A DNA stretch of 64,000 bases from Candidatus Hydrogenedens sp. GTDB taxonomy: Bacteria; Hydrogenedentota; Hydrogenedentia; Hydrogenedentales; Hydrogenedentaceae. Where the stretch lies: NCBI GenBank assembly GCA_049968235.1, contig JBMFRC010000015.1, forward strand, positions 1 to 64,000, in the 5' to 3' direction. The translations under genes and the position numbers were made by a program. Below, in pieces: positions 1-47,285 of this stretch (position 1 is its first letter; each line of letters opens with the position of its first letter). Below the pieces are notes generated by a model. That model was not told the DNA's origin. It was given only the letters and a program-made list of their open reading frames with translations, and did not search any database.

Positions 1-35
1 ATGCGAAACAAACATTAGAGAGAGAGGTAGAGGAA

Positions 36-743
36 TTGAAAGAGAAATTAAAAAACGCTCCCAAAATGGAAAACATGAGAAGTTTAGAGAAACAATTATC
101 AGCAGCAAACACCGAAAATAAGAAATTAGAACAGAAAATACAAGAATTGATGCAGTTGAGGTCAGTAGTTTCTTTAGATGATATAAATCAGATGCGGGAA
201 ATTATTAAGAAGACATTTGAATCTATTGATAAAATAGAAGAGACCATTCGAACTGGAATATCCGAGCAGGAAAAAGTGATTCATGCTACTTCAACTATAC
301 TAAAACGGAAAAGGAAGCCAAATTTGGGAGAAATACTTCTTGCGGCTGGAATTATAGATGAACATCAGTTAGAAGAAGCATTGAAGATTCAAAAACAAAC
401 ACCGATGAAACACTTAGGTGATATTTTAGTCGAATTAGGTTTTGTTTCAGAATATGCAGTGGCACAATCTTTAGCGTGTCAGTGTGATGTTCCTTTCTCC
501 ATACTTACAGAAAAGGATATATCTTCTGAAGCAATAAATGCAGTTCCTCCACGGATTATGCGACAACATAATTGTATTCCAATGAGGGTTACAGAACGAA
601 CACTTACGGTGGCTCTTACCAATCCGATAGACCTTGTTGCTATAGAAGATTTGGAGCATGCTTCTGGAAAAAGGGTTGAAGTTGTGGTTTCCACTCCCAC
701 CGATATTAAGAATCTATTAGAAAAATTGGTTCCTGTTAGTTAA
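36..743 (+). CDS. GspE-N/MshEN-domain protein (putative c-di-GMP receptor) with an N-terminal coiled coil. The reading frame is open to the window edge, so it may be truncated at the 5' end.
   Basis: Two tandem 24-residue motifs, NLGEILLAAGIIDEHQLEEALKIQ and HLGDILVELGFVSEYAVAQSLACQ, are separated by a 5-residue spacer (KQTPM). This fits the MshEN consensus RLGxxLLxxGLIxxxxLxxxLxxQ, with N in place of R in copy 1. No ATPase domain follows. The frame has no stop back to nt 3. Confidence 0.6.
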   Translation: MKEKLKNAPKMENMRSLEKQLSAANTENKKLEQKIQELMQLRSVVSLDDINQMREIIKKTFESIDKIEETIRTGISEQEKVIHATSTILKRKRKPNLGEILLAAGIIDEHQLEEALKIQKQTPMKHLGDILVELGFVSEYAVAQSLACQCDVPFSILTEKDISSEAINAVPPRIMRQHNCIPMRVTERTLTVALTNPIDLVAIEDLEHASGKRVEVVVSTPTDIKNLLEKLVPVS

Positions 744-1924
744 TTGTTATTTAATATCCATTCTTCGTTAAACCATGCATGACGGATAGTTGAACCTTTT
801 ATACTTTCTTCGCGGCATGAATATGTACAGTGAATTAGTCCATCCCGTGTTTGTATTACGGAAGGATAAGAAAAAGAACCTTTATCCGGTTCTGCTGCTT
901 CTATAGACTTTTTCCATTTCCATGTTTGTCCTTCATCATCGGACAGATAAACACTTAATCTATGTCGTCCATTAATTGTATCATTGCATACCAAAACCCA
1001 TTTCCCATTTTTAAGAGAAATGCATTCGACACTTGACCCTGGGTTAGGTATATCGAGGACAGAAACATCGGACCATGTCATTCCCATATCACGGGAGTAA
1101 GCAGTTCGAACTCGTTTAGGAAGTCCATTGTCTCGCATAAATGCAACGATTGTTCCATCCTTTTTCTTTATGAAACTTGGCTGAATGTTTGAAATATTTT
1201 TTATTTCCTTATCTAAAATAGGATTGCTAAAAAACCAATGTTCTCCCCAATCCTCTGTAAATCCAGCCAGAGAGCAATTAAAAACATCTGAATATAAGCC
1301 CAACATAATTCTGTTATCGGTAACCATGATAGGATGAATACGAGTCATCCATCCTAATCGTTGTTGAAGTTTTGTTTGTGCAGATTTTTTGGCAGATTCT
1401 ATTTCCTCTTTTAATTTGGGTTCAATTGCAGATAAAGCATCAATAGCAGGTTGCCCTCTTTCAATAACTTCTAAAAATTTCTGTTCCAGATTTAAGGGGC
1501 GAGCATGAATAACATCCTGCCATTTCCACTGTGGGGGACCATCTTTCTCATAATCATTAGAAATACGATATTTGAGCAAAGAGCCTCCCCATTGATTATC
1601 CTGCACGGTTATCCAAAATAACCATAGAACTCCTCTGGGGTCAATAAAAAGAACCGGGTTGCAATCTGGAAGGTCTGGAGTATCTGCCATAACAAATGGG
1701 TCACACCATTGATTATTGCCCACTCTTTTGCGTGCTCCCTGAAGCATCACATCATCGCTGGTTCGTTCACCAGAACCGTGAAACCATACCGCTAAAAGAT
1801 TCCCTTCAGGAGTTTCTACAATACTCGACCCGTGATTATGTTTGTCATTGGGTGGAAAAATATTTTCCTTGACAAATACAGGCTGGGATATGACAGAACA
1901 TATAGTAAGAATTAAACAGAACAT
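740..1924 (-). CDS. BNR/Asp-box repeat glycoside hydrolase, sialidase (GH33)-like, secreted.
   Basis: Asp-box motifs SDDEGQTW and SRDMGMTW are present, plus a partial TEDWGEHW. The N-terminus is a hydrophobic signal peptide. Confidence 0.5.
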   Translation of the reverse strand: MFCLILTICSVISQPVFVKENIFPPNDKHNHGSSIVETPEGNLLAVWFHGSGERTSDDVMLQGARKRVGNNQWCDPFVMADTPDLPDCNPVLFIDPRGVLWLFWITVQDNQWGGSLLKYRISNDYEKDGPPQWKWQDVIHARPLNLEQKFLEVIERGQPAIDALSAIEPKLKEEIESAKKSAQTKLQQRLGWMTRIHPIMVTDNRIMLGLYSDVFNCSLAGFTEDWGEHWFFSNPILDKEIKNISNIQPSFIKKKDGTIVAFMRDNGLPKRVRTAYSRDMGMTWSDVSVLDIPNPGSSVECISLKNGKWVLVCNDTINGRHRLSVYLSDDEGQTWKWKKSIEAAEPDKGSFSYPSVIQTRDGLIHCTYSCREESIKGSTIRHAWFNEEWILNNN

Positions 1925-1944: not shown

Positions 1945-2907
1945 TTAGATTTTAATGAATATAGATTTTATTTCAAGTATTTTAGCAACAGTATAGCATA
2001 TGAAAAGTATAACAAAAGCAGAAACAAAATGGGATAAATATATATTTTGTATTTTGTCTAATAAAAATACCGTTAATAAAAATATCAAGATAGCCTGTAA
2101 AAAATAAAGAACAAGTGGATTTTTTCCCATAGTTGTTAGAATATTTACAGTTAATTTAAGTTTCTCATTTATTATGTAGAAGATGGATAAAACGATAATG
2201 CATAAACCGGATGAAAAAATGGAATAGGAGGCACTCATTCCTTTTTGTGTAAAAGGTAGCCCCGATAATAATAGAGGTGTAGTTAAAATATAACCCAAAC
2301 CTGTTAGGAGTAATCCTATAGATAACCAATGAAATAATGTAGATGTCGTTATTTTATTTTTATCCTTTTCAAAAAGAACAGCGCAGAAAGCACCGGAGGC
2401 TAATATAAATGCCCAACTTAAGGGACCCAATGGTCCACCATCAATTGAATGAGACATAAGCCAATTTCCGTAAGGTGTGAGAGAGAATAACGCTTGATAA
2501 AGCAAAAGGTAGATAAATCCGAAAAGAAGAATAAAAAATTTATTCTTACCTATGAAGGGATATAACAATAATCCGGCAATACCTATATCTGTAAGAGCGT
2601 CCCATACGGATACATAGAAATCAAAAAAACCATATGAAAAACCTAAAAAAGTTAATATGATATATCTTTTAAGGAATTTTTTTCGCACCATTGATATAGG
2701 AGTATTTTCTATAGATTTCATAAAGGAAAGGCGATAAGAAAAACCTACAATAAAGATGAATGCGGGGGCAACGAAATCAGCAAAGGTAAATCCATAATTA
2801 TGATGCACAAGCCAATAAGGGGAATTGTTAAATTCACAAAATACATTAACAAGAATCATCCCCAATATAGCAAAACCTCTAAATTGGTCAATAAATTTCC
2901 ATCGCAT
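1945..2907 (-). CDS. DUF1624/HGSNAT-like integral membrane acyltransferase family protein.
   Basis: The N-terminus RWKFIDQFRGFAILGMILVN matches the RxxSxDxxRG signature of heparan-alpha-glucosaminide N-acetyltransferase-like proteins. About 9 hydrophobic segments are predicted. Confidence 0.45.
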   Translation of the reverse strand: MRWKFIDQFRGFAILGMILVNVFCEFNNSPYWLVHHNYGFTFADFVAPAFIFIVGFSYRLSFMKSIENTPISMVRKKFLKRYIILTFLGFSYGFFDFYVSVWDALTDIGIAGLLLYPFIGKNKFFILLFGFIYLLLYQALFSLTPYGNWLMSHSIDGGPLGPLSWAFILASGAFCAVLFEKDKNKITTSTLFHWLSIGLLLTGLGYILTTPLLLSGLPFTQKGMSASYSIFSSGLCIIVLSIFYIINEKLKLTVNILTTMGKNPLVLYFLQAILIFLLTVFLLDKIQNIYLSHFVSAFVILFICYTVAKILEIKSIFIKI

Positions 2908-3064: not shown

Positions 3065-3451
3065 ATGTCTAAAAAATGTATAATAGTAAAAGATGCTCCA
3101 CCTGCTGTAGGTCCTTATTCACACGCTGTAAAAGCAGGACAATTTTTATTTGTTTCAGGGCAGGGTCCTTTTAATAGGGACGGTTCAGGGGTTGTAAAAG
3201 GAAACTTTTCGGAACAGGTAGAATATACAATGGAGAATTTGAAAATTATACTCAATGGATGTGGATGTAATTTTTCGGATATAGTCAAGATTACAGTATT
3301 TCTAACAGATATGAGTTTATTTTCAGAGTTTAATCAGGTTTATAGTAAATTTTTTGAGAAGGATTACCCTGCTCGCAGTTGTGTGCAGGTATCTCAATTG
3401 CCAGCAGGAATTCCTGTAGAAATTGAAGCCATTGCAATATGTAGAGAATGA
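3065..3451 (+). CDS. ridA: RidA/YjgF family reactive-intermediate deaminase.
   Basis: The RidA-type N-terminal segment APPAVGPYSHAVKAGQFLFVSGQ is present in a 128-aa protein. The gene overlaps the next gene by ATGA. Confidence 0.85.
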   Translation: MSKKCIIVKDAPPAVGPYSHAVKAGQFLFVSGQGPFNRDGSGVVKGNFSEQVEYTMENLKIILNGCGCNFSDIVKITVFLTDMSLFSEFNQVYSKFFEKDYPARSCVQVSQLPAGIPVEIEAIAICRE

Positions 3452-4722
3452 AAGAATTTATGATTAAGAATGGTTATTATTTAATAACTATCATCTATCT
3501 ATTTTTATTAGTGTCTTTTAATACTTTTGCATCTGAATCGATGGAGTTAAACAATCAGGGCGTGGAGGCATATAATCTCAAGGATTATGAGAAAGCGATT
3601 ATTTTGCTATCGCAAGCCATGGCATTAAATCCGGAGAGTGAAGTCATACGAAATAATTTATGTAATGCATTACAAGCACTGGCAGATGAAGAAAGCAAAA
3701 AAAATAATTTTAAGAAAGCAGTAGATTTAGTAGATAAAGCAATTAAAATAAACTCAAATAATTTTTTTGCACATCTTCAAAAGGGGGCTTTTTTATTGAA
3801 TATGGGTCAACTTGTGGATGCCATACGACATTTAGAAATGGCGGTGAAATTAAAACCCGGTTATCTTGATGCTCATGAATTATTAGGGGAGGCTTATTAT
3901 CGGGATAATGATATTTTATCTGCGAGGACGCAATGGGAGTATGTTTTACAGATGGACCCCAATCGAAAGCAATTGAAAGAGCGATATGATAAGGCTTGCC
4001 GTGAAGAAGTTGTGGAAAGTTCTTTCAACAAGACGGTTTCACAATCTCGCCATTTTAATCTGACATATCCTAAAGAAGTGACCTATCAAATTCGTTCATA
4101 TGTTCTTTCGGTATTAGAGCGGGCTTATCTCGAAATAGGAAGAAAATTAGGAGGTGTTTTCCCCTCAGGTCCTATTCAGGTTATTCTTTACGATACTCAA
4201 CAATTTAGATCTGTTGTTCAGATGGGGCAAACTGTAGGGGGTGTTTATGATGGCAAGATACGAATTCCTGTTATGAATGAAGAGGGTGAAGGCTTGTCAG
4301 ATGAAGAAATAAAACGGAGAATATATCACGAATATGTGCATGTGGTCGTTTTTGAGTTACTTAAAGATAAAGTGCCGTGGTGGGTAAATGAAGGGTTAGC
4401 AGAAACTTTCTCAAAAGAATTTTCAAATCGTGAAAAAATGATGTTAGAACAATTTATTAATAATAAGGGACTAATACCTTATAATAATCTTGAAAAAATA
4501 TCAATAAAAGACATGTTTGCGTCGGAGACGAAGATGTCTCAGGCGTATGTACAGTCTCATGCAACCATAAATATGTTATGGAGTAAATATGGACAGGGAC
4601 GATTTCTTAACTTTGTTCAAGCACTTAAACGCAGTGAACATGTGGAAGATGCGTTGCGAAATGTTTATCACCTGGATTATACAAGTTTGTCAAAGGGAGT
4701 TATACAATTTATCCAGAGATAA
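3448..4722 (+). CDS. Secreted TPR-repeat protein with a C-terminal MA-clan (gluzincin, M1-like / Peptidase_MA_2) zinc metallopeptidase motif.
   Basis: A signal peptide and TPR-like repeats are followed by HEYVH(x17)NEGLAE, which matches HExxH...NEGxA of M1-type gluzincins. Confidence 0.55.
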   Translation: MKEFMIKNGYYLITIIYLFLLVSFNTFASESMELNNQGVEAYNLKDYEKAIILLSQAMALNPESEVIRNNLCNALQALADEESKKNNFKKAVDLVDKAIKINSNNFFAHLQKGAFLLNMGQLVDAIRHLEMAVKLKPGYLDAHELLGEAYYRDNDILSARTQWEYVLQMDPNRKQLKERYDKACREEVVESSFNKTVSQSRHFNLTYPKEVTYQIRSYVLSVLERAYLEIGRKLGGVFPSGPIQVILYDTQQFRSVVQMGQTVGGVYDGKIRIPVMNEEGEGLSDEEIKRRIYHEYVHVVVFELLKDKVPWWVNEGLAETFSKEFSNREKMMLEQFINNKGLIPYNNLEKISIKDMFASETKMSQAYVQSHATINMLWSKYGQGRFLNFVQALKRSEHVEDALRNVYHLDYTSLSKGVIQFIQR

Positions 4723-4744
4723 TTTCATAAGTCAAAAAATAGGG

Positions 4745-6769
4745 TTGTATTTTTTCCTCTACTCTTTTATAGGGGTGTCCATTATAGCCTATTCCGATAA
4801 TTGTTCTGTAAAAGGTAGGGTAGTGGATAATAATAATCTTCCTGTAAAAAATGCAGAGGTTTATTGTGAACAAAATCTGATGAGTCCCTTAGTTCAGACT
4901 ATTACAGATAACGAGGGACAATTTAGTTTTTCGGGTCTAATGGAAGGTCCGACCGGTATTTTTGCTACTACGGAAGGTATGGCATGGTCAGGAATTCATA
5001 TCAATTTGCCCGCAGAAGAAAATATAACAGGTCTGGAAATTATTCTTATCCCGGCAAAATCTGTAAAAGGTAAAGTTGTTGTATTAAATGAAAAAGGAAA
5101 AGAAGAAAGTATTTCTGGGGCAGAAATAGACCGTTTTGCAATATTAGGTGTAGAGAAAGTTGCTATACCTTGTTCCAAACTTATTCCGTTTGGATATAAA
5201 AGAGTGATTTCAGATACAGAGGGAGTTTTTTTATTGGATAAAGTGCCAGTGGGCCATACAATATCTTTAAAAGTGGTTCATCCGGAATATGCAGTTACAA
5301 CAGTGGAAAATATTTCTTATGAAGCAGATGCAAAAATAACAATGTCGAAAGGTTGTGTCGTATTGGGTTCTGTATACACTATCCAGAACGATAATAAAGT
5401 AAAAGTTGCTAATTCAGATGTTACTATAAAAAATACCCAAGCCCCATACGAAAGCATATGTGTGAGAACCAATACAGAGGGAGAATTTACAATTCGGCTG
5501 AATCCGGGAGTTTACATGTGTAAAGCAGAAACAAATCAACTGTTAAGTGCGGGATGGGAAATTAAAAAGATTGCAAATTCAATCGGCGAGCATATTCAGG
5601 TGCAGGTATTTCCATCTGTTTATATTTCGGGGCAAATATTAGATGCTATTTCAGGTAAACCAGTTCCAGGGGCTAAAGTCTCTATTGAACAGGGTGGAAA
5701 AAAAGCATTATCTCTTACTACAGGAAGAACGGGGAAATTTCGGGGTAAGGTTGTTCATGGACAGGCTTATATAAAGTTTGAGGCTATTCCAGGCTATACA
5801 ATACCACAACCTTCACAATTAAGAGTTGTGGTAAGTGGAAAAGATGAAATTGTATTGCCCGGTGTATGGGTGAAAAAAGTGGATTCGTTGAAAGTTAAAC
5901 TTGTAGTCCTTCAACAAAAGGTATTAACAACAAATAGAGGAATTGTTTCTGTATTAAACCCTCAGCAATTAGGCTGGTATGCAGGGAATATTGATAATAC
6001 CTTTGAACTAAAACTATCATCAACTCCTGCGGAAGGGAAAATTGTTGGATATGCAGAGATTCCCGAAGAAAATATAGGCAATGTTTTTACGTTGGATAGT
6101 AAAGATATGGGAAAAGTCTGTGAAACAAATCTTTATACATTAGGTACAATAAAAGGTAGAGTCGTGAACAAAGAAAGAACCCCTATTTCTGATGGGATTA
6201 TTTCATGTGTATTGAAAGAAGTGGGAACAAGTCAGGAATATTTATTATGGCAGATACTTCTATCAGCAGATGGAACTTTTTATTGGAATTCTATTATTCC
6301 ATTCAAAACTCTTCTTTTTAAATTGTATGATAATAATGGTTCCTTATTATGGCAATCTTCTGAAATGCAATTTTTAGAAGGAGAGAATAAAGATATAGGT
6401 GATATTATAATAGAAAAGTCTGTGACTAGGAAAAATGTGAGTTCATTACTTCGTTCTAATTATAAAAATTTATGTGGAGGAAGTGAAATCGTAGATATGT
6501 TATTTAAAGGACCCTCTGTTCTTGTTTATGTTGATAGTGCAGAGGTTCTTTTTATGCAAGAAGTATTGGCGAATATAAGAAATATTTTCGGTAGTGGTAT
6601 AAATGTTGGGATGATACTTACCAATGAAATTGATTGTAATGATATAAGTATTCCAGTAATAACAGGGCAACGACCTTCATTAGCCACAACATATTTAATA
6701 GGTGAAGATGGTAATTTGATATGTGAAACTTTTGGTTTACCTTTAATGATACGGATGATAAAAAAGTAA
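4745..6769 (+). CDS. Secreted protein with multiple carboxypeptidase-regulatory-like (CarbopepD_reg) beta-sandwich domains and a C-terminal cysteine-less TlpA/redoxin-like fold.
   Basis: Repeated GRVVD.../GQILDA.../KGRVV modules are present. In the C-terminal segment, VLVYVDSAEVLFMQE sits where TlpA-like proteins have FWATWCPPC. The tracked ORF starts at 4589 and overlaps the upstream gene. The true start is probably TTG 4745 or GTG 4775, just before a hydrophobic stretch, but this is uncertain. Confidence 0.5.
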   Translation: MYFFLYSFIGVSIIAYSDNCSVKGRVVDNNNLPVKNAEVYCEQNLMSPLVQTITDNEGQFSFSGLMEGPTGIFATTEGMAWSGIHINLPAEENITGLEIILIPAKSVKGKVVVLNEKGKEESISGAEIDRFAILGVEKVAIPCSKLIPFGYKRVISDTEGVFLLDKVPVGHTISLKVVHPEYAVTTVENISYEADAKITMSKGCVVLGSVYTIQNDNKVKVANSDVTIKNTQAPYESICVRTNTEGEFTIRLNPGVYMCKAETNQLLSAGWEIKKIANSIGEHIQVQVFPSVYISGQILDAISGKPVPGAKVSIEQGGKKALSLTTGRTGKFRGKVVHGQAYIKFEAIPGYTIPQPSQLRVVVSGKDEIVLPGVWVKKVDSLKVKLVVLQQKVLTTNRGIVSVLNPQQLGWYAGNIDNTFELKLSSTPAEGKIVGYAEIPEENIGNVFTLDSKDMGKVCETNLYTLGTIKGRVVNKERTPISDGIISCVLKEVGTSQEYLLWQILLSADGTFYWNSIIPFKTLLFKLYDNNGSLLWQSSEMQFLEGENKDIGDIIIEKSVTRKNVSSLLRSNYKNLCGGSEIVDMLFKGPSVLVYVDSAEVLFMQEVLANIRNIFGSGINVGMILTNEIDCNDISIPVITGQRPSLATTYLIGEDGNLICETFGLPLMIRMIKK

Positions 6770-21409: not shown

Positions 21410-24400
21410 CTATTTAGCAGATAAGGTTCTCTGTTTTGAAGATGTTAAGATTTTAATAGAAGAAAAACATTTCATAAGTATATTGGATATATCTTCTGTG
21501 TAGGTGTAGAACAGTGGAACGACTACAAGCGTTAAGATTGTTCCTAAAATTAATCCTCCTACGAGGGCTTTTCCTAAACCTGAAAACATAACTGCACCTC
21601 CTGTTTTTGCGGTAGCTAATGGAACAAGTCCAAGAATAGTGGTTAATGCGGTCATCATCACCGGTCGGAGTCGGTCTTTACTTGCTTCAATGATTATATC
21701 TGTTAATTCTTTATTTTCTTTCTTCCGCAGGAAGTTAATATGGTCAACAATTACGATACCATTATTGACAATGACACCTACCATAAGGACGCAACCGATA
21801 AGAGTAATCATATCCCAATATGAATTTGTGAAGTAGAGTGTCCATGATGACCCGACAAGTGAAAGAGGAACGGTCGTTAAAATGACAAGAGGGAGAAGAA
21901 TGGATTCAAAAGTAGCACACATCACGATGTAAATTAATACGATAGCCATACTCATCGTTATTGCAAAATTAGTTAGATTCGTCTGTATTTCTTCTAACTC
22001 AATACCATAATTAAGGTTATATCCATCAGGTAATTCAAGACGAGATATGATTTCTGTTAAGTCTTTTTTTATACGGGTTAAGTCTTCTGTGTTCGCTTTT
22101 GCCCGAAAGTTAATAACATTCCTCCCATTATATCTTTTGACTACATCTGGTCCTGGTTTCCGTTCATAAGTTACTACTTGATGTAAAGGAATTAATCCTC
22201 CTTTACTGGAAATAACCATTAAATTATCTAAATTAGATTTAGTTTTTCTATCTTCCTCCTTATATTGAAGCCATACAGGTATTTCGCGTGTTCCCTCTTT
22301 TAAGTAGGGAAGTTGGGCTCCTCTCAATGCGGTATCAATGGTTTGGGCTATTGTAAAGGGATTAACTCCCTGTTCGTCTATTTGCCATTCGTTCATAGAT
22401 ACACGCATCTCCTGTTTTTTTTGTTCAACATCCATTGTTATATCTGTAAAGATGGGATTCTCTTGCAGTATGGATTTTATCCTTTGTGCTTGTTCATAAA
22501 GAATAGTATTATCTTTGCCTGTTAACCGTAAGGTTACTTCTCGTGATGTTCCAGATTCACCGGTATCTGCAATAGAGAATTCTAATTTTCCACCAGGAAT
22601 TTGAGAAGGTAAAGTATTTTTTACAATAGTCAAAGCCTCTTCTGTAGTACAAGGAGGATTTTCGCCAATTTCACCATCATCTTCTGTGTATAAATAAACA
22701 TGAATTTCTCCTCCATTATCTCCATGAAAAAGAAGAATATTTTTTATAGCAATGGCATCTCTAAGGGATTCCAATTTTTGTGAAAGTTGGTCAAATAAAT
22801 CTCTTACGCGGTTTGACTCAAAATTCTGGTCGAGAGTTACTTTTATATCTACTTCGCGTGTGTCTAATTTAATCAGGTCTTTCATACCTACGGATTTTAC
22901 AGGAATTAAATATGAGACTATTAAGAAGATAGATAAGCCAATAAGGAAAGATAATCTGTTTTTGAGAGACCATCTCAAACAAAGTTCTAATAAAAAGTAA
23001 ATTTTCTCTAATATTTTGAAACTTCCCGCTTTATCCCGGACAAAAATTAATATTTTACTTAGTGATATGAATATTTTGTTCTGCGAAATAATTTTATTTG
23101 AGGGGAATCCAAAATTTAATATCAGTGGAACAATAGTAAGAGCAATGACTAAACTTCCCAATAAAGCAACAATTAAAGGACCGCCTAATTGTTGCATAAA
23201 AATTGACATTCGTCCCGCTTCCAGATAATACATAGGCAGAAATACAACAATGGTTGTTAGTGTTGATGCCGAAATGGCTACTCCTACTTCAGATGCCCCC
23301 CGAGTAGAACTTGTCGTTTTATCATAACCTAACTGCTGATAACGGATGATATTTTCAACAACAACAATAGCATTGTCTACTAACATACCTACTGAAATAA
23401 TAAGGGATGCCATTGTTATTATATTGAGGGACATATCTGCAAAATACATAAAAATGATACCAATCATTAAAGAAGAGGGTATAGCAAAAGCAACAATAGT
23501 GGTAGGAATTATGCGATGTAAAAACAATAAAAGGACAATAAAAGCCATTATTCCACCATAAATCCCCTCTCCGAAAAGATTATTAAGTGCACGATTTATT
23601 AAGTCCGATTGGTCAAAAAATATTTTTGTTGAACTTCCGGAAAATGCATCTTCGGTTAGAATGTTATCCAGTTCTCTTTTAATACGGTCACAAACTGCTA
23701 CTGCATTCGCTTCCGATTCTTTTATCACTAATAGGACAACACCTCCTTTGCCATCCAGAGCTACCCGTTGAGACTTTTCACGAGAGCCAAATTGGACTGT
23801 AGCAATATCTTTCAATCGCATTCCATCTCTATTGATTACAAGATTTTCGATTTCTGAGAGGTTTCGGTACTCACCTGATAAACGAGCAAAGTATTTTCTA
23901 TTATTTTGAGTTACAGAACCGAGGGATATGTTTATAGATGAGGAACGAAGTGTATTAAGGAGAGAAACTATAGGGATGTTAAGGCTATTCAGTCGGTCTT
24001 GAGAAACCTCAATAAGTACTTCTTTTTCAGGAATGGGTGAGATTATTTGTATATCTGCAACTCCATCTAACCTTCTAAGACGGGGAATGAGAGATGTCCT
24101 GACCAGATACACATAATTTTCTTCATCGCCCGATTTAAAAAGACCAACTGCAAAGACAGGAATAGAACCTGAACTAAATCGTTGTATAATGATTCGTTGA
24201 ACTTCTTCCGGTAAAGTCATCTTTAATCGTTCTATACGGTCACGCACTTCTGCTGTTGCAAAAGTCATATCAGTATCAAGATTAAACCACATATTCACAG
24301 TACAACCATTGGAAGAACTGGTAGTTGCGATACTTCTTAACCCGGGGATAGTTCGAAATTCACCTTCTACGGGGATGGCTATTTGCTGTTCGACCTGTTC

Positions 24401-24574
24401 CGGCGAACCTCCGGGATATGGGATAAAACAACCTATGAAAGGACGGTCTACTTTAGGAAGGAATTTTAAAGGAATACGATACCACGAGATAACCCCTAAT
24501 ACCAGGATTGATATAGAAATCATAATCATAGTAATAGGTCGGTTAATGGCTAATTTGGGTAACGACCAATTCAT
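21410..24574 (-). CDS. RND efflux permease (HAE1/AcrB-MdtC family).
   Basis: The protein is 1054 aa with 12-TM architecture and two large periplasmic loops. The start codon directly abuts the stop codon of the upstream RND gene. Confidence 0.85.
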   Translation of the reverse strand: MNWSLPKLAINRPITMIMISISILVLGVISWYRIPLKFLPKVDRPFIGCFIPYPGGSPEQVEQQIAIPVEGEFRTIPGLRSIATTSSSNGCTVNMWFNLDTDMTFATAEVRDRIERLKMTLPEEVQRIIIQRFSSGSIPVFAVGLFKSGDEENYVYLVRTSLIPRLRRLDGVADIQIISPIPEKEVLIEVSQDRLNSLNIPIVSLLNTLRSSSINISLGSVTQNNRKYFARLSGEYRNLSEIENLVINRDGMRLKDIATVQFGSREKSQRVALDGKGGVVLLVIKESEANAVAVCDRIKRELDNILTEDAFSGSSTKIFFDQSDLINRALNNLFGEGIYGGIMAFIVLLLFLHRIIPTTIVAFAIPSSLMIGIIFMYFADMSLNIITMASLIISVGMLVDNAIVVVENIIRYQQLGYDKTTSSTRGASEVGVAISASTLTTIVVFLPMYYLEAGRMSIFMQQLGGPLIVALLGSLVIALTIVPLILNFGFPSNKIISQNKIFISLSKILIFVRDKAGSFKILEKIYFLLELCLRWSLKNRLSFLIGLSIFLIVSYLIPVKSVGMKDLIKLDTREVDIKVTLDQNFESNRVRDLFDQLSQKLESLRDAIAIKNILLFHGDNGGEIHVYLYTEDDGEIGENPPCTTEEALTIVKNTLPSQIPGGKLEFSIADTGESGTSREVTLRLTGKDNTILYEQAQRIKSILQENPIFTDITMDVEQKKQEMRVSMNEWQIDEQGVNPFTIAQTIDTALRGAQLPYLKEGTREIPVWLQYKEEDRKTKSNLDNLMVISSKGGLIPLHQVVTYERKPGPDVVKRYNGRNVINFRAKANTEDLTRIKKDLTEIISRLELPDGYNLNYGIELEEIQTNLTNFAITMSMAIVLIYIVMCATFESILLPLVILTTVPLSLVGSSWTLYFTNSYWDMITLIGCVLMVGVIVNNGIVIVDHINFLRKKENKELTDIIIEASKDRLRPVMMTALTTILGLVPLATAKTGGAVMFSGLGKALVGGLILGTILTLVVVPLFYTYTEDISNILMKCFSSIKILTSSKQRTLSAK

Positions 24575-27500
24575 TTATTTTCTTCCCCTGTGGAACATAC
24601 TCGAAAACATATAATTTGCCATAGGGATTATCCAGAGTGTTAGAAGAGTACTCGAAGAAAGTCCTGCCATAACAGTTAATGCCAGAGGTTGTCTTAATTC
24701 AGAACCTTCACCATGTGATAATAACATGGGCAGTAAACCGAGAACCGTTGTTAATGTTGTCATCAATATAGGTCTGAGACGAACCACCGCTGCCTGTACG
24801 ATAGCATCATGTGTAGAAAGCCCTCTTGAAACAAGTTGGTTGGTATAGTCAATTAGAACAATAGCATTGTTTACTACTATTCCTGCAAGAACTATAGAAC
24901 CTAAAAAAACCATTACATTTAAATTTGTATTTGTCCAGAATAGCACCAAGACAACACCAATAAAGGCAAGTGGAACAGAAAACATAATCAAGATAGGCAA
25001 CCAGATAGATTCAAATTGACATGCCATAACTACATAAACAAGAAAAACAGCTAACAATAATGCGAAACGTAAACTTTGATAGGAAGTTGATAGTTCACGA
25101 TTTTGACCACCAAGTGTAATAAAGAATTCGCGTGGTTTTTCTACTTCTCGTAATGATTCTAAAACTTCATTAGATACACTGGCTAAATCCCTTCCCTCAA
25201 TATTTGCTGTAATCAGGGCGACTCTTTTTTGCCCTATTCTTCGAATATCACTGGGTCCTGTATCCTCTATAATTCGGGCTACATCACAAAGACGAATGGG
25301 TGTTGTTCCTTCTACTATGGATAACTGCTTTAAGTCTTCTATGCTTTGTAAATAGGTTTGGTCTGTACGTACACGAATATCTATCTTGTCTCCTCCCCGA
25401 TTGAATTTGGTGGCAATTTCCCCTTGGATTTCTCTTCTTAATTTATTTGCTACTTCCATTGGAGTTAGCCCTTTTTCAGCAAGAAGTTCTCTATCCAACT
25501 GAATAAGTAGTTCAGGATACCCCGACTGTATAGAAATATCAGCATCTTTTATCCCCTTTATAACTTTTACTTTTTGAAGACATTTTCCGCCAACACTTTT
25601 TAATATGTTCAAATCATCACCAAAAATTTGGACTTCTAAATCGTTTTTCATTGTAAAGAGTGTAGGTAACGAAAAAACTATAGATTCCTCTGGAAGGGGT
25701 ACTATAGAAGAACGAATTTCATCAATAATTTTGTCTTGTATCCTTGCTGTTTGATTTCGATTTTTCAACAAAACAGTAAATGATGCTTTGTTTTCATTTT
25801 TCCCTTTACTTTCCGATTTGGAACTTTCAGTTCCCACCTGTAATGTAACTCGTTCAACTAAGGGATGCTCTTTAAGTACTTTTTCGATTCTTGATGCTTT
25901 TTGTAAAGTCTGTTCTAATTTAGTTCCTGCACGCGTTTCAAAAAGAATATTAAATTCCCCCTGTTTCATTGCAGGGATAACTTCCTGTCCAAGGGTGGGT
26001 AGTATCTTTAATGTGTAAATAAAAAGGACTACAGCAAGAAGTATGAAAATAGGTGAAAATTTCAAACTATAAGAAAGTGAAATTCTATAAAAATATTGAA
26101 AACTTTCAAATCCGATATGAAAGATTTGGAGGGGTATATAAAGTGTCCAATGGATAACTTTCTTCAAAATAAAAAACAGTATAAGTATGATGACAAAAAT
26201 AGGGAGAGAGAAAAGAATTGAGAAGAAGATGATGGGATAAAGAATAAAATTTAATATCAACCATGAAGTAAGTTTTAACAAAAGATTAAAAGGAAAGAAA
26301 ACAATTCTAATTATATCTTTGATTGTAGATTGTGAAAGTCTAAATTTGAATATATCAAGAAAATGTTTTTTAGATTTTCTAAAATGTCTTTTTATTATGA
26401 AGATTAAAGCATATAAAAACGAAGATATTGTCTTTTTCTGCTTTACATTTTTATAAAATAGAAATGTACGCACAGGATGGAAAATATATTGAGTATTTTC
26501 GGATATAAAGTGTGTTTTTGATACAACCAGTGGATTAAAGAATAAAGCAACAAACAATGAAGCAAGGAGTGAAAAGGTAACAGTTAATGCAAGGTCCCCA
26601 AAAATTTGTCCTGCTATCCCTTCTACAAAAGCCACCGGGAAAAATACCGCTACAGTCGTTAGTGTTGAAGCGATTACAGCAGAACTTACTTCTGATGTCC
26701 CGCGAATGGCAGAATCGACGACAGAATCTCCCTCTTCTCTACATCGAGCAATGCTTTCTAATACTACGATAGAATTATCCACTAACATACCGATACCTAA
26801 TGCAAGTCCTCCCAATGACATAATATTAAGAGAAATATCTCTCATGAACATGGGTATAAAAACGGTAATAATAGAAATAGGAATGGCAAAACCTATTGTA
26901 AGAGTACTTCGTAATTCACGAAGGAAAAGATAGAGAATGAGTAATGCTAATATACCTCCATTAATAGCAGAATTTTGAACTTCCTGTATAGAACTGATAA
27001 TAAACTGTGACTGGTCGCTAATGATATGAATTTTTGCATCAGCGGGGAGTGAACTAAGCAAATTCTTTTTCTTAAACAATTCTTTCCGTGATTTTGGGTC
27101 CTCAAGAGTATGTTGGCCATCAGCATCTTTAGCAACAGGTTGAAGTCCAAAGGACATCTGCTCATCTATTAATTCAGATAAACTTTTCTTCCTTTCAATT
27201 CCTAACAAATCTTTTATAAGATTACAAACTGTAACTGTATTTGAATCCCCTTCTTTGTAAATCTCTATTTCTATAGCATCTTCACCATTAATTCGGATAA
27301 TTGTATCTCTTTCTTTATTTCCCCACCGGACAGTAGCAACATCTTTTAATTTAATAGGAACTGATTTTTTCTGCACATTAGATATACTTTGAGAAGAAGT
27401 TGATAACGATTTTATGGGTAAATTGGATATCGGATTGGAATCCAGAGTAGGTATGCCAATAGATGAGGAAATAATTACATTTTTAATATCTTCAATATCC

Positions 27501-28255
27501 TTAAATTCTTTAAGGGTCCGCACAATATATTCCGTTTTCCCTTCAACTAATTTTCCCCCCGCAACATTAATATTCTGACTTGCCAGACTTTGAGTAATAT
27601 CATCTAATGACAATCCTAATGATTTAAGCATTTTGCTATCTACCAGAATTTGTATCTCTTCTTCCTGCCCTCCTTTTACTACAACCTGTGCAATCCCTGT
27701 TTCTGCCTCCAAATCACTTTTGAGTTTTCTTTGGACAGATTCGCGAAGTGTTGTTAAATATTCATTTTTTTCCTCTGAATCTAAATTATTTGGCGGAGTA
27801 ATTCCTACACGAATTACAGGGTCTAAATTTGGATTAAATCTTAGAATAACAGGTTTTTTAGTTACCTCTTTGGGTGGTTCAAATAAGTCCAATCGGTCAC
27901 GCACATCTTGTTGGGCAACATTCATATCTGTGTTCCAGAGGAATTCCAGAGTTATTTCAGAAAGTCCGACAGATGAAACACTACTAATTTCAACAAGTCC
28001 ACTAACAATACTTAACATTTCTTCAAGAGGACGAGTAACCAACTTTTCTACATCTTCGGGTGCTGCTCCCTCAAATTCTGTTTGTATGGTCAGAGAAGGA
28101 TATGAGATTTCAGGCATCAGATTAATAGGGAGTTTTTGATAAGAACGCCAACCGAAAACAATAATAGTAGTGAATATCATTAATGTTGTTACGGGACGGT
28201 ATATGGGAAAAGATATTAAGGACGATGTCGTTTGTTTTATTGGTTGTTCGCTCAC
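24575..28255 (-). CDS. RND efflux permease (AcrB/MdtB-like) with an atypical ~150-aa hydrophobic insertion between TM6 and TM7.
   Basis: The protein is 1226 aa and carries RND TM2-6 and TM8-12 blocks. There are extra hydrophobic segments after TM6 (...IVFFPFNLLLKLTSWLILNFILYPIIFFSILFSLPIFVIILILFFILKKV...). Confidence 0.8.
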   Translation of the reverse strand: MSEQPIKQTTSSLISFPIYRPVTTLMIFTTIIVFGWRSYQKLPINLMPEISYPSLTIQTEFEGAAPEDVEKLVTRPLEEMLSIVSGLVEISSVSSVGLSEITLEFLWNTDMNVAQQDVRDRLDLFEPPKEVTKKPVILRFNPNLDPVIRVGITPPNNLDSEEKNEYLTTLRESVQRKLKSDLEAETGIAQVVVKGGQEEEIQILVDSKMLKSLGLSLDDITQSLASQNINVAGGKLVEGKTEYIVRTLKEFKDIEDIKNVIISSSIGIPTLDSNPISNLPIKSLSTSSQSISNVQKKSVPIKLKDVATVRWGNKERDTIIRINGEDAIEIEIYKEGDSNTVTVCNLIKDLLGIERKKSLSELIDEQMSFGLQPVAKDADGQHTLEDPKSRKELFKKKNLLSSLPADAKIHIISDQSQFIISSIQEVQNSAINGGILALLILYLFLRELRSTLTIGFAIPISIITVFIPMFMRDISLNIMSLGGLALGIGMLVDNSIVVLESIARCREEGDSVVDSAIRGTSEVSSAVIASTLTTVAVFFPVAFVEGIAGQIFGDLALTVTFSLLASLFVALFFNPLVVSKTHFISENTQYIFHPVRTFLFYKNVKQKKTISSFLYALIFIIKRHFRKSKKHFLDIFKFRLSQSTIKDIIRIVFFPFNLLLKLTSWLILNFILYPIIFFSILFSLPIFVIILILFFILKKVIHWTLYIPLQIFHIGFESFQYFYRISLSYSLKFSPIFILLAVVLFIYTLKILPTLGQEVIPAMKQGEFNILFETRAGTKLEQTLQKASRIEKVLKEHPLVERVTLQVGTESSKSESKGKNENKASFTVLLKNRNQTARIQDKIIDEIRSSIVPLPEESIVFSLPTLFTMKNDLEVQIFGDDLNILKSVGGKCLQKVKVIKGIKDADISIQSGYPELLIQLDRELLAEKGLTPMEVANKLRREIQGEIATKFNRGGDKIDIRVRTDQTYLQSIEDLKQLSIVEGTTPIRLCDVARIIEDTGPSDIRRIGQKRVALITANIEGRDLASVSNEVLESLREVEKPREFFITLGGQNRELSTSYQSLRFALLLAVFLVYVVMACQFESIWLPILIMFSVPLAFIGVVLVLFWTNTNLNVMVFLGSIVLAGIVVNNAIVLIDYTNQLVSRGLSTHDAIVQAAVVRLRPILMTTLTTVLGLLPMLLSHGEGSELRQPLALTVMAGLSSSTLLTLWIIPMANYMFSSMFHRGRK

Positions 28256-28324
28256 GATTTCTCCCTACGGCTTTATTTAATGGATTTTACTTTTCTGAAA
28301 GGTAGAAATTTACATATAAGAAAT

Positions 28325-29500
28325 TCATGTATTTGATGTATTATTATCCGAATTCAGTATTTTTTCTAGTGATGTTACTTCAACAATAGAACCCGGCTTT
28401 AAATTCATTTGCCCTAAGGTAATTACAAGAGTATGTTCATCAATACCTTTTAATACTTCATAATAAGAACTATCTTCAAGACCGACCTGAATTTCTACTT
28501 TCTGTGCAGTAAATTGTATTGATTTGTTTTTAATTTCATTATAATCAAGTTTCTTTATATCTTCCGTATCTTTTGTTTGTGCCGTAAAAATATACTTTTT
28601 CCCACTTTCTTCTAAAACAGCATCTTTGGGTATAACAATTACCTGGGGGTGCACTTCCATGACCAGTTTTACTCTTGCAAATGCAGAATCTTTAATGCAG
28701 GTATTTTTGTCATTTTCAAGAAACTGCAGAGTCGTTTTTATTGTCCCGGATGAAGGGTCGATCGTAGGACTAATTCGGAATACAGTTGCGATAAAGTTTT
28801 CGGAAGGACAGGAATCAACTATAACTTCTGCTTTTTGATTTATATACACTCTGGAAATTTCGCGTTCAGGAATGTTTATTGGTAATACATAAGAATCCGG
28901 GTCCACAATAGAGAATACAGGCATGCCTGTACTTACCAGAACACCTTTCTGTATATTTTTTCGTGTGATTATTCCACTGATAGGTGCAGTTATGGTTTGA
29001 TTTTTTAATTGTAATTGTTGAATTTTAAGGGTGGCTTCCGCAGCGTCTAATGCAAAACGTGCATTATCTCTTTCTACTTTTGAACCAATACCTTCTTTCA
29101 AACTGTTTTCTGCAATTATAAGCGCAGATTTACATTTTTCAATATTTACCCTCGTTTGTAAAATTTGAGTTTCAACTTCTGATGTATCCAGTTTCGCTAA
29201 AATTTGTCCCTCTTTTGCATAATCTCCTTCTTCAACAAATATCTCTTCACAAATTCCCATCCCTTTAGATATTACATCTACTTTTTTTTCCGCCGTAATT
29301 CTTGTAGTAGTTTCAAAATATTTACTTATATCCTTTTTACTAGGGAATACTGCTTCAACGGGAGATGCCATTGGTTTGGTTGTATTTATTTGTGCATCAT
29401 CGTTCGCATCCACTTTTTTATTCAGTGAACAACTATGAATAAATAGCGTTCCTATAACTATTACGAACAATATCCCGAAATTATACAATCTTGTTTTCAT
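28325..29500 (-). CDS. RND efflux periplasmic adaptor (membrane fusion protein, HlyD/AcrA family).
   Basis: The protein has a lipoprotein-type N-terminus (LFIHSC) and coiled-coil, lipoyl and beta-barrel segments. It is 391 aa and lies directly upstream of the two RND permeases. Confidence 0.75.
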   Translation of the reverse strand: MKTRLYNFGILFVIVIGTLFIHSCSLNKKVDANDDAQINTTKPMASPVEAVFPSKKDISKYFETTTRITAEKKVDVISKGMGICEEIFVEEGDYAKEGQILAKLDTSEVETQILQTRVNIEKCKSALIIAENSLKEGIGSKVERDNARFALDAAEATLKIQQLQLKNQTITAPISGIITRKNIQKGVLVSTGMPVFSIVDPDSYVLPINIPEREISRVYINQKAEVIVDSCPSENFIATVFRISPTIDPSSGTIKTTLQFLENDKNTCIKDSAFARVKLVMEVHPQVIVIPKDAVLEESGKKYIFTAQTKDTEDIKKLDYNEIKNKSIQFTAQKVEIQVGLEDSSYYEVLKGIDEHTLVITLGQMNLKPGSIVEVTSLEKILNSDNNTSNT

Positions 29501-29687: not shown

Positions 29688-29776
29688 AAAAGTGGCATTA
29701 TTATAAAGTGATATAATTCATGTTATAATTGTATACTATTGTTGTGAACAATAAGAGCACAACTGGAGAAATTTAT

Positions 29777-32700
29777 ATGAGAAAATCTGTATATTTTTTG
29801 TGTTTTCAAAGCATCCTATTTTTCACAATATTGTTGACAATTACAGGTTGTCCTCGAGAAGAAGTGGGAGGTTATTTAATTGTAGAACCGACATCGGTGG
29901 ATTTGGGTTCTAATGATGATAGTGCAGACATTCTGGTATGGAAAAATACAACGACCAGTTCTATAGGTCCAATTGTTGTTGAATCCCAAATTCCGTGGAT
30001 TTCTGTGGAAGGTTGTGCTACTGTTAATGATGAATGTTATAGTTTGGGACCTTTGGATAAAAAACGCATACGGATAAGAATAGACAGGGAAAAAACAGAC
30101 CTCGGACCTAATTCAGGAAATATAATCGTTCGGGCTACGAATGCTCCTTCAACAACGGTCCTGATAACTTTAATTGATTTAATAAAAGTGGATTTTGATG
30201 CTTCGAGTAAATTTACGACAGTAAACGAGGCAATTAGATTTTTTAATCAAAGTGCAGTTCAATCAGGGACTATACGAAAAGTAACATGGGATTTTGGAGA
30301 TGGTCAAACCTCTAATGATTATAATCCAACATATTTCTATCAGAAACCCGGTAATTATACAGTTACCTTGACTGTAGAGACTGATAAAGGTATTGAGAAA
30401 AGAGTAAAAGAGAATTTTATAAATGTAATTAGTGGTAACCTTACTGTTGATTTTTCTGCAAGTTCTCAGATAGTTCTATTGGGCGAGGAAGTTCAGTTAA
30501 TAGATAGAAGTCGTTCCGAAAAAGAAAATATTATTAATCGTTTCTGGGATTTCGGAGATGGAAAAACCAGTAATGAAGTAAATCCAAGGCATAAATATGA
30601 AAATCCTGGAATTTATTCCGTTACTTTAACTGTATATACAGAGAATCAAAATAAATCATTAACTAAAGAAGGGTATATAACTGTTCAAGAAGGTGTGCCT
30701 CCTAAAGCAAAATTCTCTGTTAGTCAAATCAAACCATTTATATATATTCCGGTTCAATTTTCTGATTTATCGGAAGCAGGAAGTTCGCCTATTACTGACT
30801 GGTTATGGGATTTTGGCGATGGAAACACTTCAACAGAACAAAATCCGCAATATGCGTTCACAAGGATTGGGAATCAGCAAATAAAATTAACAGTTAAGAA
30901 CAAGTTCGGTATTAGTTCCTTTTCACTGCCTGTAGAAGTTATTTATCTACCTCCTACCGCAGAATTTTCTGCTGAACCACTTGTTTTGTATGAAGGAGAA
31001 TCGGTTTTCTTTGCTGATTTATCCATAAAGGGGACAGAACGAATCATTCGCTGGTTGTGGAATTTTGGAGATGGTGGTACCGAGACCATAGAATATCAAC
31101 CCTATTCTCATGAGAATGGGAATACAAGATATGCCTATGCACAACCCGGTATTTATTCCGTATCTCTAACGGTAAATACAAGCACAACTTCAAATAATGA
31201 AAGTAGTATTACAAAAAGTTCTTATATTACAGTTCACAAACCACCTGTGCCCCAATTAAGTGTTTCTACAAGAAGCCCTGTAATACAGAAAGAAGTGCTT
31301 TTCCTCAATCGAACAGCAATAGGAACAGAGACAGAGTTGACTTTTGAATGGAATTTTGGCGATGGGTCTCCTGTCAAAACTATGAACACTACGGATTCTG
31401 TTTCACATATTTATTCAGAAGCCGGAGTTTATGATGTTACATTAAAGGTAAAAACGCCATTAAAAACATTCGAAAGTGAACCTGTTAAAGTTTATGTAGA
31501 TGCTCCACCTATTCCAGATTTTGAGTATACCCCCAAACGGATAACAGTAGAAGATTTAGTACAGTTTACGGATTTGTCTAACTCTGAAGGAACTCGACCT
31601 ATAATAGGTTGGGTATGGTCATTTGGCGATGGTTCTGGTGTATCAACCATGCAAAACCCAACACATCGCTTTGAAAGTCCCGGAAAATATAAAGTAGAGT
31701 TGTATTTAGTATTTACCCATTCCAAGAGTGGAGAGCAACTTAAAACATCTGCAGTTTCAAAAACATTGACCATCGGTTCTGCAATTCCTCCAACAGCCGG
31801 ATTTAAAATTGAAAGTCCTTGTGCCATTGTAGGAAGTGAAGTAAAGTTTTACGACCAATCAAAAACGGGAACAGCACCCATTGTCAGTTGGGAATGGGAT
31901 TTTGGTGATGGTGAAACTTCAAATGACCCATCACCAATACATGTATATTCTACTCCAGGAACTTATACCGTAAAATTAAAAGTTCAAACAGAAGGGGGAC
32001 TTGAATCAGAAGTCGTAAAACAAGATTGCATAGACGTAAGTAATTATGCAAGTCCTTTAGATATATTTGTAAGAGAACGCGACTCTGAATATACATGGAC
32101 AACGCCGGTAGAATATCCTGTAAATTATACCTCAGGTTCAGTTTCTATACGATTAGCGACCGCATATATAACGCGAATGACATCACAAGCCTGGCGCGAG
32201 GCAGATGATTTGTATAGTGGAAGAATATGGAAACATAATTTGGCCATTATTGTTCCAGAACGAAAACGAAATAATACCGCCTTATTATTCATTGATGGAG
32301 GTAACATCAATAGTAATCCACCTAATGAATCAGAAAGACTGTTCTTTGGTGAACTTGCCGCTTTATCCGGCTCTGTAATTGTTCATATAGACAATGTTCC
32401 TAACCAGCCTATTGTATTTATCGATGACTACGATGCAGAAAGGAATGTTATTCTTAAGTCGCGTACAGAGGATGACATTATTGCTTATAGTTATGACAAG
32501 TATATGAATGAATATAAGAATGGTAACGACGATTATCATTGGCCATTATTACTGGCAATGGCAAAATCTGCTGTCCGTGCTATGGATACAACCCAATTTA
32601 TATTGGAAGATAATGCACCATCGGAATTTATTATATCAGGAGGTTCGAAACGCGGATGGACTACATGGTTAACAGGATTAACAGACTGTCGTATAAAAGC

Positions 32701-38050: not shown

Positions 38051-38962
38051 TTAACCAATAAAATATTGAAAATTCTTATCAATAAGAGGCTCTATATCTT
38101 TCTTATAGATAATCGGTTCACTCACTTCATTTTTATGTTGTTCCCAAAAAGATTTCCACTCTTCTATATTATCAATTTTTTTATTGTTTAATTCTATTTT
38201 CCACAGGTTATTTAATGCTTCTTTACTCGAATTGGCAATTCTTGGTTCTGGATGGCTAAGGTTTTCTATAAGAACAGGTGTTACAGATTTTAATCCTACA
38301 TGGGCTATTGCATAATTTGTTATGATACATACATCGATATCCGGGTCAACTAACCCACGAATAATTAAATTATAACTTTCTGTATCTTTTGCAATGGCTA
38401 AAAGTTCAATGGCTTTTCCACGTACTGTCGGTGCGGAATCAAGAATTTTATCTCTTAAAATTTTTATCGTTTTATCTTTATTTATCTTATATAAAATTTC
38501 TAAAATATGCGGTGTGATTGTAGGGGAATAAGAGGGAAGATAGTATTCTAAATAAGGGAAGATATCCATTGTTTTTTGAAGTTCTAATAATCCATTTTTA
38601 GCAGTAACACGGTCAACTTCTTCGCCCCATTGAATTCTACTAATTAGTGCTTCAACCTGTGCTCGTTGGTCTTTATTTAATCCCGTTTTTTCGGTAAGTA
38701 ATTTGTCTTTTTCTTCCCATTCCTTTTTTGCTTCATCTAAATTTATTTCACCTGTTTTATCGTTTTTTTGGATGTTAGCAATTTCGTCTTTTGTGTATTT
38801 AAATATTTTCTTCCCTACCTGTATCGTGTAAATTCCATCGGCTGATTCATCAACGATTTGCCCATCAAAAGTAATACCACTTTTTAAGGTAAAGGTATCT
38901 GGAAAAGTGAAAATACATATAAAAGACGCGAACAAAAAAGCAAAAATGAACCTTATACCCAT
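38051..38962 (-). CDS. HEAT/PBS-lyase-repeat protein with an N-terminal signal or anchor.
   Basis: HEAT-like repeats are present (for example PTVRGKAIELLAIAKD..., DPDIDVCIITNYAIAHVG, PEPRIANSSKEAL). The gene lies 33 nt downstream of the GspK-like gene on the same strand. Confidence 0.45.
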   Translation of the reverse strand: MGIRFIFAFLFASFICIFTFPDTFTLKSGITFDGQIVDESADGIYTIQVGKKIFKYTKDEIANIQKNDKTGEINLDEAKKEWEEKDKLLTEKTGLNKDQRAQVEALISRIQWGEEVDRVTAKNGLLELQKTMDIFPYLEYYLPSYSPTITPHILEILYKINKDKTIKILRDKILDSAPTVRGKAIELLAIAKDTESYNLIIRGLVDPDIDVCIITNYAIAHVGLKSVTPVLIENLSHPEPRIANSSKEALNNLWKIELNNKKIDNIEEWKSFWEQHKNEVSEPIIYKKDIEPLIDKNFQYFIG

Positions 38963-38995
38963 TTTAATCCTCCTATAAAAGATATTTATTAAAAA

Positions 38996-41326: not shown

Positions 41327-41336
41327 ACGCTATCTC

Positions 41337-42002: not shown

Positions 42003-42011
42003 AGCCTTATT

Positions 42012-46471: not shown

Positions 46472-46532
46472 ATCTTTATGAAACTTTGTTTTACTTATAT
46501 TAACAGATTTAATGAAGAATAAAAAATATACA

Positions 46533-47273: not shown

Positions 47274-47285
47274 ATTTTATATAAA

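Follow-up and report, generated by a model that had tools for sequence, protein, structure and literature searches.

The first gene in a 64,000-nucleotide stretch of DNA from a Candidatus Hydrogenedens species (hereafter the window) encodes a complete MshEN domain, and the resemblance is far beyond chance. The gene as it stands in the window is predicted, from its full-length orthologues, to be the last third (246 of about 730-762 residues) of a cytoplasmic helical rod protein. The explanation that best accommodates these features is a non-enzymatic scaffold or adaptor that depends on c-di-GMP, in which a coiled-coil rod ends in a C-terminal MshEN sensor, and we consider this role rather likely. 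The c-di-GMP field has described many enzymes of synthesis and breakdown and too few receptors, and the gap is widest in uncultivated phyla. Fusions of MshEN to varied partners are already known, as the domain is promiscuous. What is new here is a known receptor domain on an uncharacterised, non-enzymatic family of scaffolds with a site signature of its own.

The MshEN gene runs in frame 3 of the plus strand, which is open from base 3 to a TAA at 741-743. The features of this end of the window are as follows.

3-743, plus strand: coiled-coil/MshEN gene, 3'-terminal 246 codons and stop; the rest of the gene, its 5' two-thirds, falls outside the contig and the window
3-302, plus strand: last ~100 residues of the helical rod, comprising a coiled-coil segment, a proline break at 'NAPK' and then less regular helix
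303-320, plus strand: basic linker KRKRKP (residues 101-106), from the sequence; AlphaFold2 models coil at 102-107
321-392, plus strand: MshEN motif I, NLGEILLAAGIIDEHQLEEALKIQ (residues 107-130), from the match to NF053729
393-410, plus strand: spacer KQTPMK, six residues (131-136), by direct count
411-482, plus strand: MshEN motif II, HLGDILVELGFVSEYAVAQSLACQ (residues 137-160), from the match to NF053729
489-728, plus strand: C-terminal alpha/beta subdomain of MshEN (T2SSE_N1-like), residues 163-242, from Pfam PF05157, AlphaFold2 and Foldseek
740-1924, minus strand: BNR_2 sialidase-like gene, a convergent neighbour whose stop overlaps that of the MshEN gene by 4 nt; context only
1945-2907, minus strand: HGSNAT/Acyl_transf_3 gene, neighbour

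A database entry from a 74.8-kb contig, P0001 ('hypothetical protein, partial, Candidatus Hydrogenedens sp.'), has exactly the same 246 residues, so the window most likely begins at a contig end and the truncation of the gene stems from assembly, not biology. The preliminary description of this DNA had noted that the reading frame is open to the window edge, and the extended gene found in another assembly of the same species (L002) bears this out: its MshEN reading frame is longer by 40 coiled-coil residues, with the 5' end still open. This locus and a second same-species assembly were reached through a look-up of the adjoining sialidase-like protein. At about 9070-9080 of L001, from another assembly of this species (GCA_049971155.1) and equivalent to window 25-26, GG is replaced by T, which creates an in-frame TAG in the coiled coil; owing to this TAG the MshEN gene is called there from an internal start, with a length of 222 aa. 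As the site is near a contig end, it may reflect an assembly error rather than a pseudogene.

The complete protein is seen in other species. A scan of one genome per species recovered four syntenic orthologues (L003-L006) with 63-88% identity, including one from Ca. Hydrogenedens terephthalaticus. Another locus from the same scan, L007, is a secretin that was matched only through the word 'DIKNLLEK', a false lead. The reading frames of the four orthologues are listed at 748-762 aa, or about 730-762 aa when counted from the likeliest start codons. Each lies downstream of a stop codon and a gap between genes, and in the three loci whose upstream sequence is long enough (L004-L006) the gene across that gap is a divergent HTH_17 gene. 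Each protein consists of an N-terminal head of ~85 aa, a proline-segmented, coiled-coil-like helical stretch of ~500 aa, a basic linker and the C-terminal MshEN domain. In the orthologue alignment, the first ~85 residues form a conserved helical head. A crude heptad score is positive across about residues 85-570 of an orthologue, and the rod is interrupted by single prolines at 'SNPEE', 'NAPK', 'ILPT', 'EAPDK' and 'NAPK'. Indels within the rod measure 7, 7, 14 and 30 aa among the orthologues, three of the four being whole heptads.

In the AlphaFold2 model of the 757-aa orthologue (L004), residues 6-611 are ~97% helix, arranged as about ten long helices of moderate confidence (pLDDT 50-82); pLDDT exceeds 95 in MshEN, and the overall pTM is 0.35. 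When the full-length model was submitted to Foldseek, only the MshEN portion gave significant matches. In the window fragment, the end of the rod is modelled as helices at residues 2-17, 22-55 and 58-101 (pLDDT about 85-93), and Pro106 terminates the rod helix immediately ahead of motif I. The preliminary description had pictured a small freestanding receptor, with a larger upstream portion left as a caveat. That picture is an artefact of the contig edge, since only the last third of the protein is visible in the window and the whole is long, with a conserved head and a rod.

Database searches relate the domain most closely to PilB, PilF and MshE, and the gene could on that account be read as the N-terminal part, or a fragment, of an ordinary GspE/PilB/MshE secretion ATPase. 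However, the stop codon lies directly after the domain, where the convergent gene overlaps, and the upstream sequence supplied by the four full-length orthologues holds coiled-coil-like sequence only. Neither a Walker A motif nor PF00437 was found in these four proteins, and no in-frame GspE/PilB ATPase precedes the domain. Their Pfam matches amount to the C-terminal MshEN and weak hits of coiled-coil type, without any catalytic domain such as an ATPase, transferase or receiver. The full-length orthologues thus rule out the ATPase fragment, to which we assign next to no probability, and the earlier observation that the gene lacks a T2SS/T4P ATPase or other output domain is upheld.

MshEN is defined by two 24-residue motifs (PMC5013675). 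Residues 107-160 (window 321-482) read NLGEILLAAGIIDEHQLEEALKIQ, KQTPMK and HLGDILVELGFVSEYAVAQSLACQ, and the 54 residues from Asn107 to Gln160 divide as 24 + 6 + 24. Motif I retains L2, G3, L6, G10, L17, L21 and Q24 and begins with Asn107, while motif II retains L2, G3, L6, G10, L21 and Q24, begins with His137 and has Val at position 17. For L2, G3, L17, L21 and Q24 taken over both motifs, nine of ten residues are identical, the exception being this Val. Arg at position 1, or any of R/K/L, is absent from both motifs. The relaxed search motif of Wang and colleagues accepts [RKPN] at position 1, which admits Asn and excludes His (PMC5013675).

NCBIfam NF053729, a 53-position model of the MshE-related c-di-GMP motif, matches residues 108-160 with 62.6 bits (cutoff 38, E 2e-17), and Pfam PF05157 (T2SSE_N) matches residues 163-242 with 65 bits (cutoff 23.1, E 6e-18). 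A sequence search of the PDB matched PilF, PilB and MshE at E 5e-28 to 2e-14, and the top NCBIfam full-protein match for the window fragment is E. coli NfrB. The AlphaFold2 model, built with 80 family sequences as input, has a mean pLDDT of 92.6 and shows four short helices (residues 108-160) and then an alpha/beta region (175-242); pLDDT over the alpha/beta subdomain (163-242) is 96-98. Its best Foldseek match is c-di-GMP-bound V. cholerae MshE (5HTL; rmsd 2.1 Å, 30% identity), followed by c-di-GMP-bound PilF GSPII-B. The same two-subdomain fold is shared with MshEN of 5HTL and with Thermus PilF GSPII-B/C, at target-normalised TM of 0.85 and 0.8, respectively. Further matches are 7LKM (PilB-N with PilZ) and 2BH1 (EpsE-N1 with EpsL).

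The tandem MshEN motif that the preliminary description had placed in the first gene is therefore secure, as NF053729, PF05157 (the HMM comparison it had proposed), the PDB matches and the AlphaFold2/Foldseek results agree. Its finer points need amendment. The motif had been called near-perfect, whereas Asn and His stand in place of the two position-1 arginines and II-17 is Val instead of Leu. The spacer had been given as exactly five residues and counts six (KQTPMK), and the end coordinate of 486 lies about one codon past the true motif end at 482. A five-residue spacer, which had been taken to define c-di-GMP binding, also fails as a strict rule, since the spacer of the proven binder NfrB has four.

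The protein belongs to a widespread family. HMMER was run exhaustively against 1.84 billion cluster representatives and returned 15,493 matches at E <= 1e-3, and 158 proteins, nearly all of them top matches of this search, were analysed. A single MshEN at the extreme C-terminus, preceded by >100 aa and unaccompanied by Walker A, is found in 94 of the 158. Many members are 460-530 aa long, with Ala- or Glu-rich coiled-coil N-terminal regions and a common 'KGTKSxLAxQLAEAL' segment. The members that were looked up come from metagenomes or MAGs only, and their proteins are unnamed or 'hypothetical'. Word-indexed homologue searches gave few matches, named only 'hypothetical protein', and the cluster look-up was likewise uninformative. 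Literature searches on MshEN/T2SSE_N with coiled coil, and on Hydrogenedentes with c-di-GMP, found no characterised member, and the coiled-coil/MshEN architecture is absent from Supplementary Table 4 of Wang et al. 2016 (PMC5013675). In one relative, P0178 (763 aa, ENA metagenome), a transmembrane helix at the N-terminus is joined to a long coiled coil, MshEN and a C-terminal PilZ, so that two different c-di-GMP receptor domains share one rod.

The departures from the canonical motif recur throughout this family. In an alignment of 80 members, the spacer has six residues in 76 and Pro at its fourth position in 65, while II-1 is His in 54 and II-17 is Val or Ile in 76. Gly3 is kept in 77 (motif I) and 79 (motif II) of the 80, and Gln24 in 77 and 78; the nearly invariant columns of the family include G3, L6 and Q24 in both repeats. 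As the deviations are common across the family, they are better regarded as family signatures than as decay. The best-conserved columns correspond to the ligand contacts of MshE, and on this pattern of conservation the ligand site appears to be under selection.

Judged from its residues, the MshEN of the window gene probably binds c-di-GMP. MshEN holds its ligand through two three-leucine clusters and the backbone amides of Gly3 and residue 4, and Arg1 only stacks on guanine (PMC5013675). The changes in the non-binder XpsE are G11V, L29R, G40L, L54H, L58C and Q61V (PMC5013675), and the positions lost there are all intact in the window protein, save for the conservative Val at II-17. A five-residue spacer and Arg at position 1 have not proved strictly necessary in characterised binders. 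PilF GSPII-B has Lys and Leu as its position-1 residues and still binds at 6 nM, and the consensus there was accordingly extended to R/K/L (PMC11731258). E. coli NfrB, a proven c-di-GMP binder (PMC8669469), has Pro at I-1 and a four-residue spacer in its sequence, and the spacer of Geobacter PilB has seven residues. His at II-1 falls outside both the R/K/L and the [RKPN] sets and counts against binding, although His137 could plausibly stack on guanine in place of Arg. An engineered PilF GSPII-A lost binding altogether with Ser at II-1 (PMC12002112). PilF GSPII-A with a perfect consensus still did not bind, its alpha1 being extended N-terminally and its subdomains tightly packed (PMC12002112); in the window protein, Pro106 and the modelled coil at 102-107 would remove the obstacle of an N-terminally extended alpha1.

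The chief alternative is a degenerate, ligand-blind MshEN comparable to XpsE and PilF GSPII-A, which would serve as a docking module only, with c-di-GMP uninvolved. The loss of Arg from both position-1 sites and the non-canonical spacer are in keeping with this idea, as is the lesson of PilF GSPII-A that consensus sequence alone is no guarantee of binding (PMC12002112), and MshEN-type docking has precedents in PilB-N/PilZ (7LKM) and EpsE-N1/EpsL (2BH1), both of which are fold matches of the window protein. The preserved XpsE positions and an NF053729 score well above the cutoff argue against it, however, and so does the near invariance of G3 and Q24 in both motifs across a diverse family. An invariant G3 is hard to explain without a ligand, because this residue serves the backbone hydrogen bonds to guanine and not the fold. 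We therefore treat ligand blindness as a real but lesser possibility; were it true, the protein would be another hypothetical coiled-coil protein with a docking domain. It is very unlikely that the site is tuned to another cyclic dinucleotide, such as 3'3'-cGAMP, by His at II-1, the Pro spacer and Val at II-17. MshEN does bind cGAMP weakly (PMC5013675), and the family signature is consistently unlike that of canonical binders, but the guanine-recognising backbone amides (G3 and residue 4) are kept in both half-sites and the sporadic neighbours of family members are GGDEF and HD-GYP genes, not CD-NTase genes.

Set beside MshE and PilF, the window protein has the same tandem 24-residue motif (L2, G3, L6, G10, L17, with Val in motif II, L21 and Q24), and a basic patch precedes motif I in both it and MshE (PMC5013675). 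It differs from them in the residues of position 1 (Asn and His, against Arg in MshE and Lys and Leu in PilF-B) and in a spacer of six residues with Pro rather than five. Its MshEN is C-terminal on a non-enzymatic rod, whereas theirs is N-terminal to a T2SSE/PilB hexameric ATPase, and its gene stands outside any pil, msh or gsp operon. E. coli NfrB shares with it a C-terminal MshEN whose spacer is non-canonical and whose position 1 is not Arg (Pro in NfrB). NfrB, however, is a GT2 glycosyltransferase with an allosterically activated GT domain and transmembrane helices, and the window protein has no enzymatic domain. The Myxococcus proteins FrzS and AglZ consist of a receiver domain and a coiled coil and serve motility machines as localisation or adaptor factors. 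They offer an analogy of layout, without any claim to sequence kinship, in that a small signalling domain is mounted on a long non-enzymatic rod; their sensor is an N-terminal pseudo-receiver, whereas that of the window protein is a C-terminal MshEN.

Under the favoured reading of a c-di-GMP-dependent scaffold, the rod would dimerise and bring two MshEN domains together at one end. Each MshEN would bind one c-di-GMP in the manner of MshE and PilF, with the guanines resting on the Leu/Val clusters, hydrogen bonds from the backbone NH groups of Gly3 and residue 4, and His137 stacking. Binding may then reorient the two subdomains, as in PilF GSPII-B, and this reorientation would switch partner binding or self-assembly of the rod. 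Because the protein has no catalytic domain, the signal is expected to be read out through binding or assembly. The leading guess for a partner is a platform protein of a type IV filament or T2SS-type machine, since GspL/EpsL docks on the alpha/beta subdomain (2BH1) and PilZ on the N-domain of Xanthomonas PilB (7LKM). Gene neighbourhoods favour such a partner at a single locus, L005, where a pilin-like cluster is found directly upstream.

If binding holds, the family would be a sizeable group of receptors without enzymatic activity (the layout is shared by 94 of the 158 analysed proteins) that read out c-di-GMP through a coiled-coil scaffold. The MshEN consensus would then extend to His at II-1 and a six-residue spacer, with better genome-wide prediction of receptors as a result. 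A bolder version, which we think unlikely, is a c-di-GMP-gated cytoskeletal or tethering element whose paired MshEN domains control polymerisation, polar anchoring or partner capture. Such an element would be a rod tens of nanometres long with a purely structural read-out of c-di-GMP, its hosts would include Hydrogenedentota and, by gene neighbourhoods, planctomycete-like bacteria, and its MshEN would represent a new site subtype with His stacking and a six-residue Pro spacer.

The genes around MshEN give little direction. The preliminary description had set the gene beside a sialidase/acyltransferase pair, and the neighbours are as it described, with the adjacency kept in L001-L006; a functional meaning does not follow, as the orientation is convergent and the arrangement is confined to close Hydrogenedentes relatives. 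A partnership with these two genes, in which the protein might for instance regulate glycan processing, has the conserved adjacency in its favour. It is nonetheless highly improbable, because convergent genes are not co-transcribed, the loci that share the arrangement are all close relatives, and family members from other lineages have unrelated neighbours. The functional link was rejected on the convergent orientation and on the loss of the pairing beyond close relatives. Across eight family gene contexts no conserved operon partner was found, and the output of the protein is a guess for that reason. The REC, REC-HD-GYP, REC-PAS-GGDEF and HATPase_c_3 genes that occur in these contexts are all sporadic.

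Of the eight members, three are near c-di-GMP or receiver genes. L004 (198-1589, minus strand) and L006 (180-1571, minus strand) each have a REC-PAS-GGDEF gene 3 kb upstream, its GGDEF motif intact. A REC-HD-GYP-type gene (L013 2365-3468, minus strand) is divergent to the family member P0026, and a single-domain REC gene is convergent to another, P0044. A small HTH_17 protein of excisionase type with an acidic C-terminal tail is encoded in L004 (4041-4421), L005 (3909-4259) and L006 (4025-4444), on the minus strand in each. This gene is divergent to the MshEN gene in all three loci with upstream sequence, even in the differing context of L005, and it may be a local regulator. A scan for promoters and terminators in the orthologous locus gave fewer matches than shuffled sequences and was uninformative.

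Within the 64-kb window, no GGDEF, EAL, PilZ or T2SSE ATPase gene was found; its content includes housekeeping genes, glycoside hydrolases and a pilin-like cluster at 38-42.5 kb. Placement in a gsp, pil or msh cluster was not observed, as the immediate neighbours of the MshEN gene are BNR_2 and acyltransferase genes, with HTH_17 on the other side in the orthologous loci, and the pilin-like cluster is 38 kb away in the window. In this cluster (38051-42476, minus strand), the products of 42012-42476 and 41337-42002 carry prepilin N-terminal methylation motifs. A 776-aa protein (38996-41326) has a pilin-like hydrophobic N-terminus and no Pfam match, and a HEAT-repeat protein is encoded at 38051-38962. 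In L005 (115-3402), an orthologue of the 776-aa protein (84% identical) and the HEAT gene are found directly upstream of the HTH and MshEN genes.

Elsewhere in the window, a 412-aa HATPase_c_3 protein (47286-48527, minus strand) is followed by three ORFs of ~245 aa (region 45010-48527), for which neither Pfam nor PADLOC gave a match. PADLOC returned no defence-system match for the MshEN protein or the HATPase_c_3 cluster. Over its full length, this HATPase_c_3 protein shares 48% identity with the product of L012 2625-3854, a gene on an unrelated metagenome contig that is divergently adjacent to the family member P0042; the recurrence could be coincidence or a weak recurring association. At 21410-29500 (minus strand), two tandem AcrB-type RND genes (1054 and 1226 aa) accompany an HlyD-type membrane-fusion gene, and in the second RND protein the N-terminal extension is unusually long, the best ACR_tran stretch beginning at residue 647. 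A 1603-aa protein encoded at 29729-34540 (plus strand) contains seven PKD repeats and a PhoPQ-activated pathogenicity-related (PF10142) domain. Finally, a TPR/Peptidase_MA gene (3448-4722) and a CarboxypepD_reg-repeat ORF (4589-6769), both on the plus strand, overlap by 134 nt as listed; the 702-aa call in L001 suggests that the true start of the latter lies further downstream.
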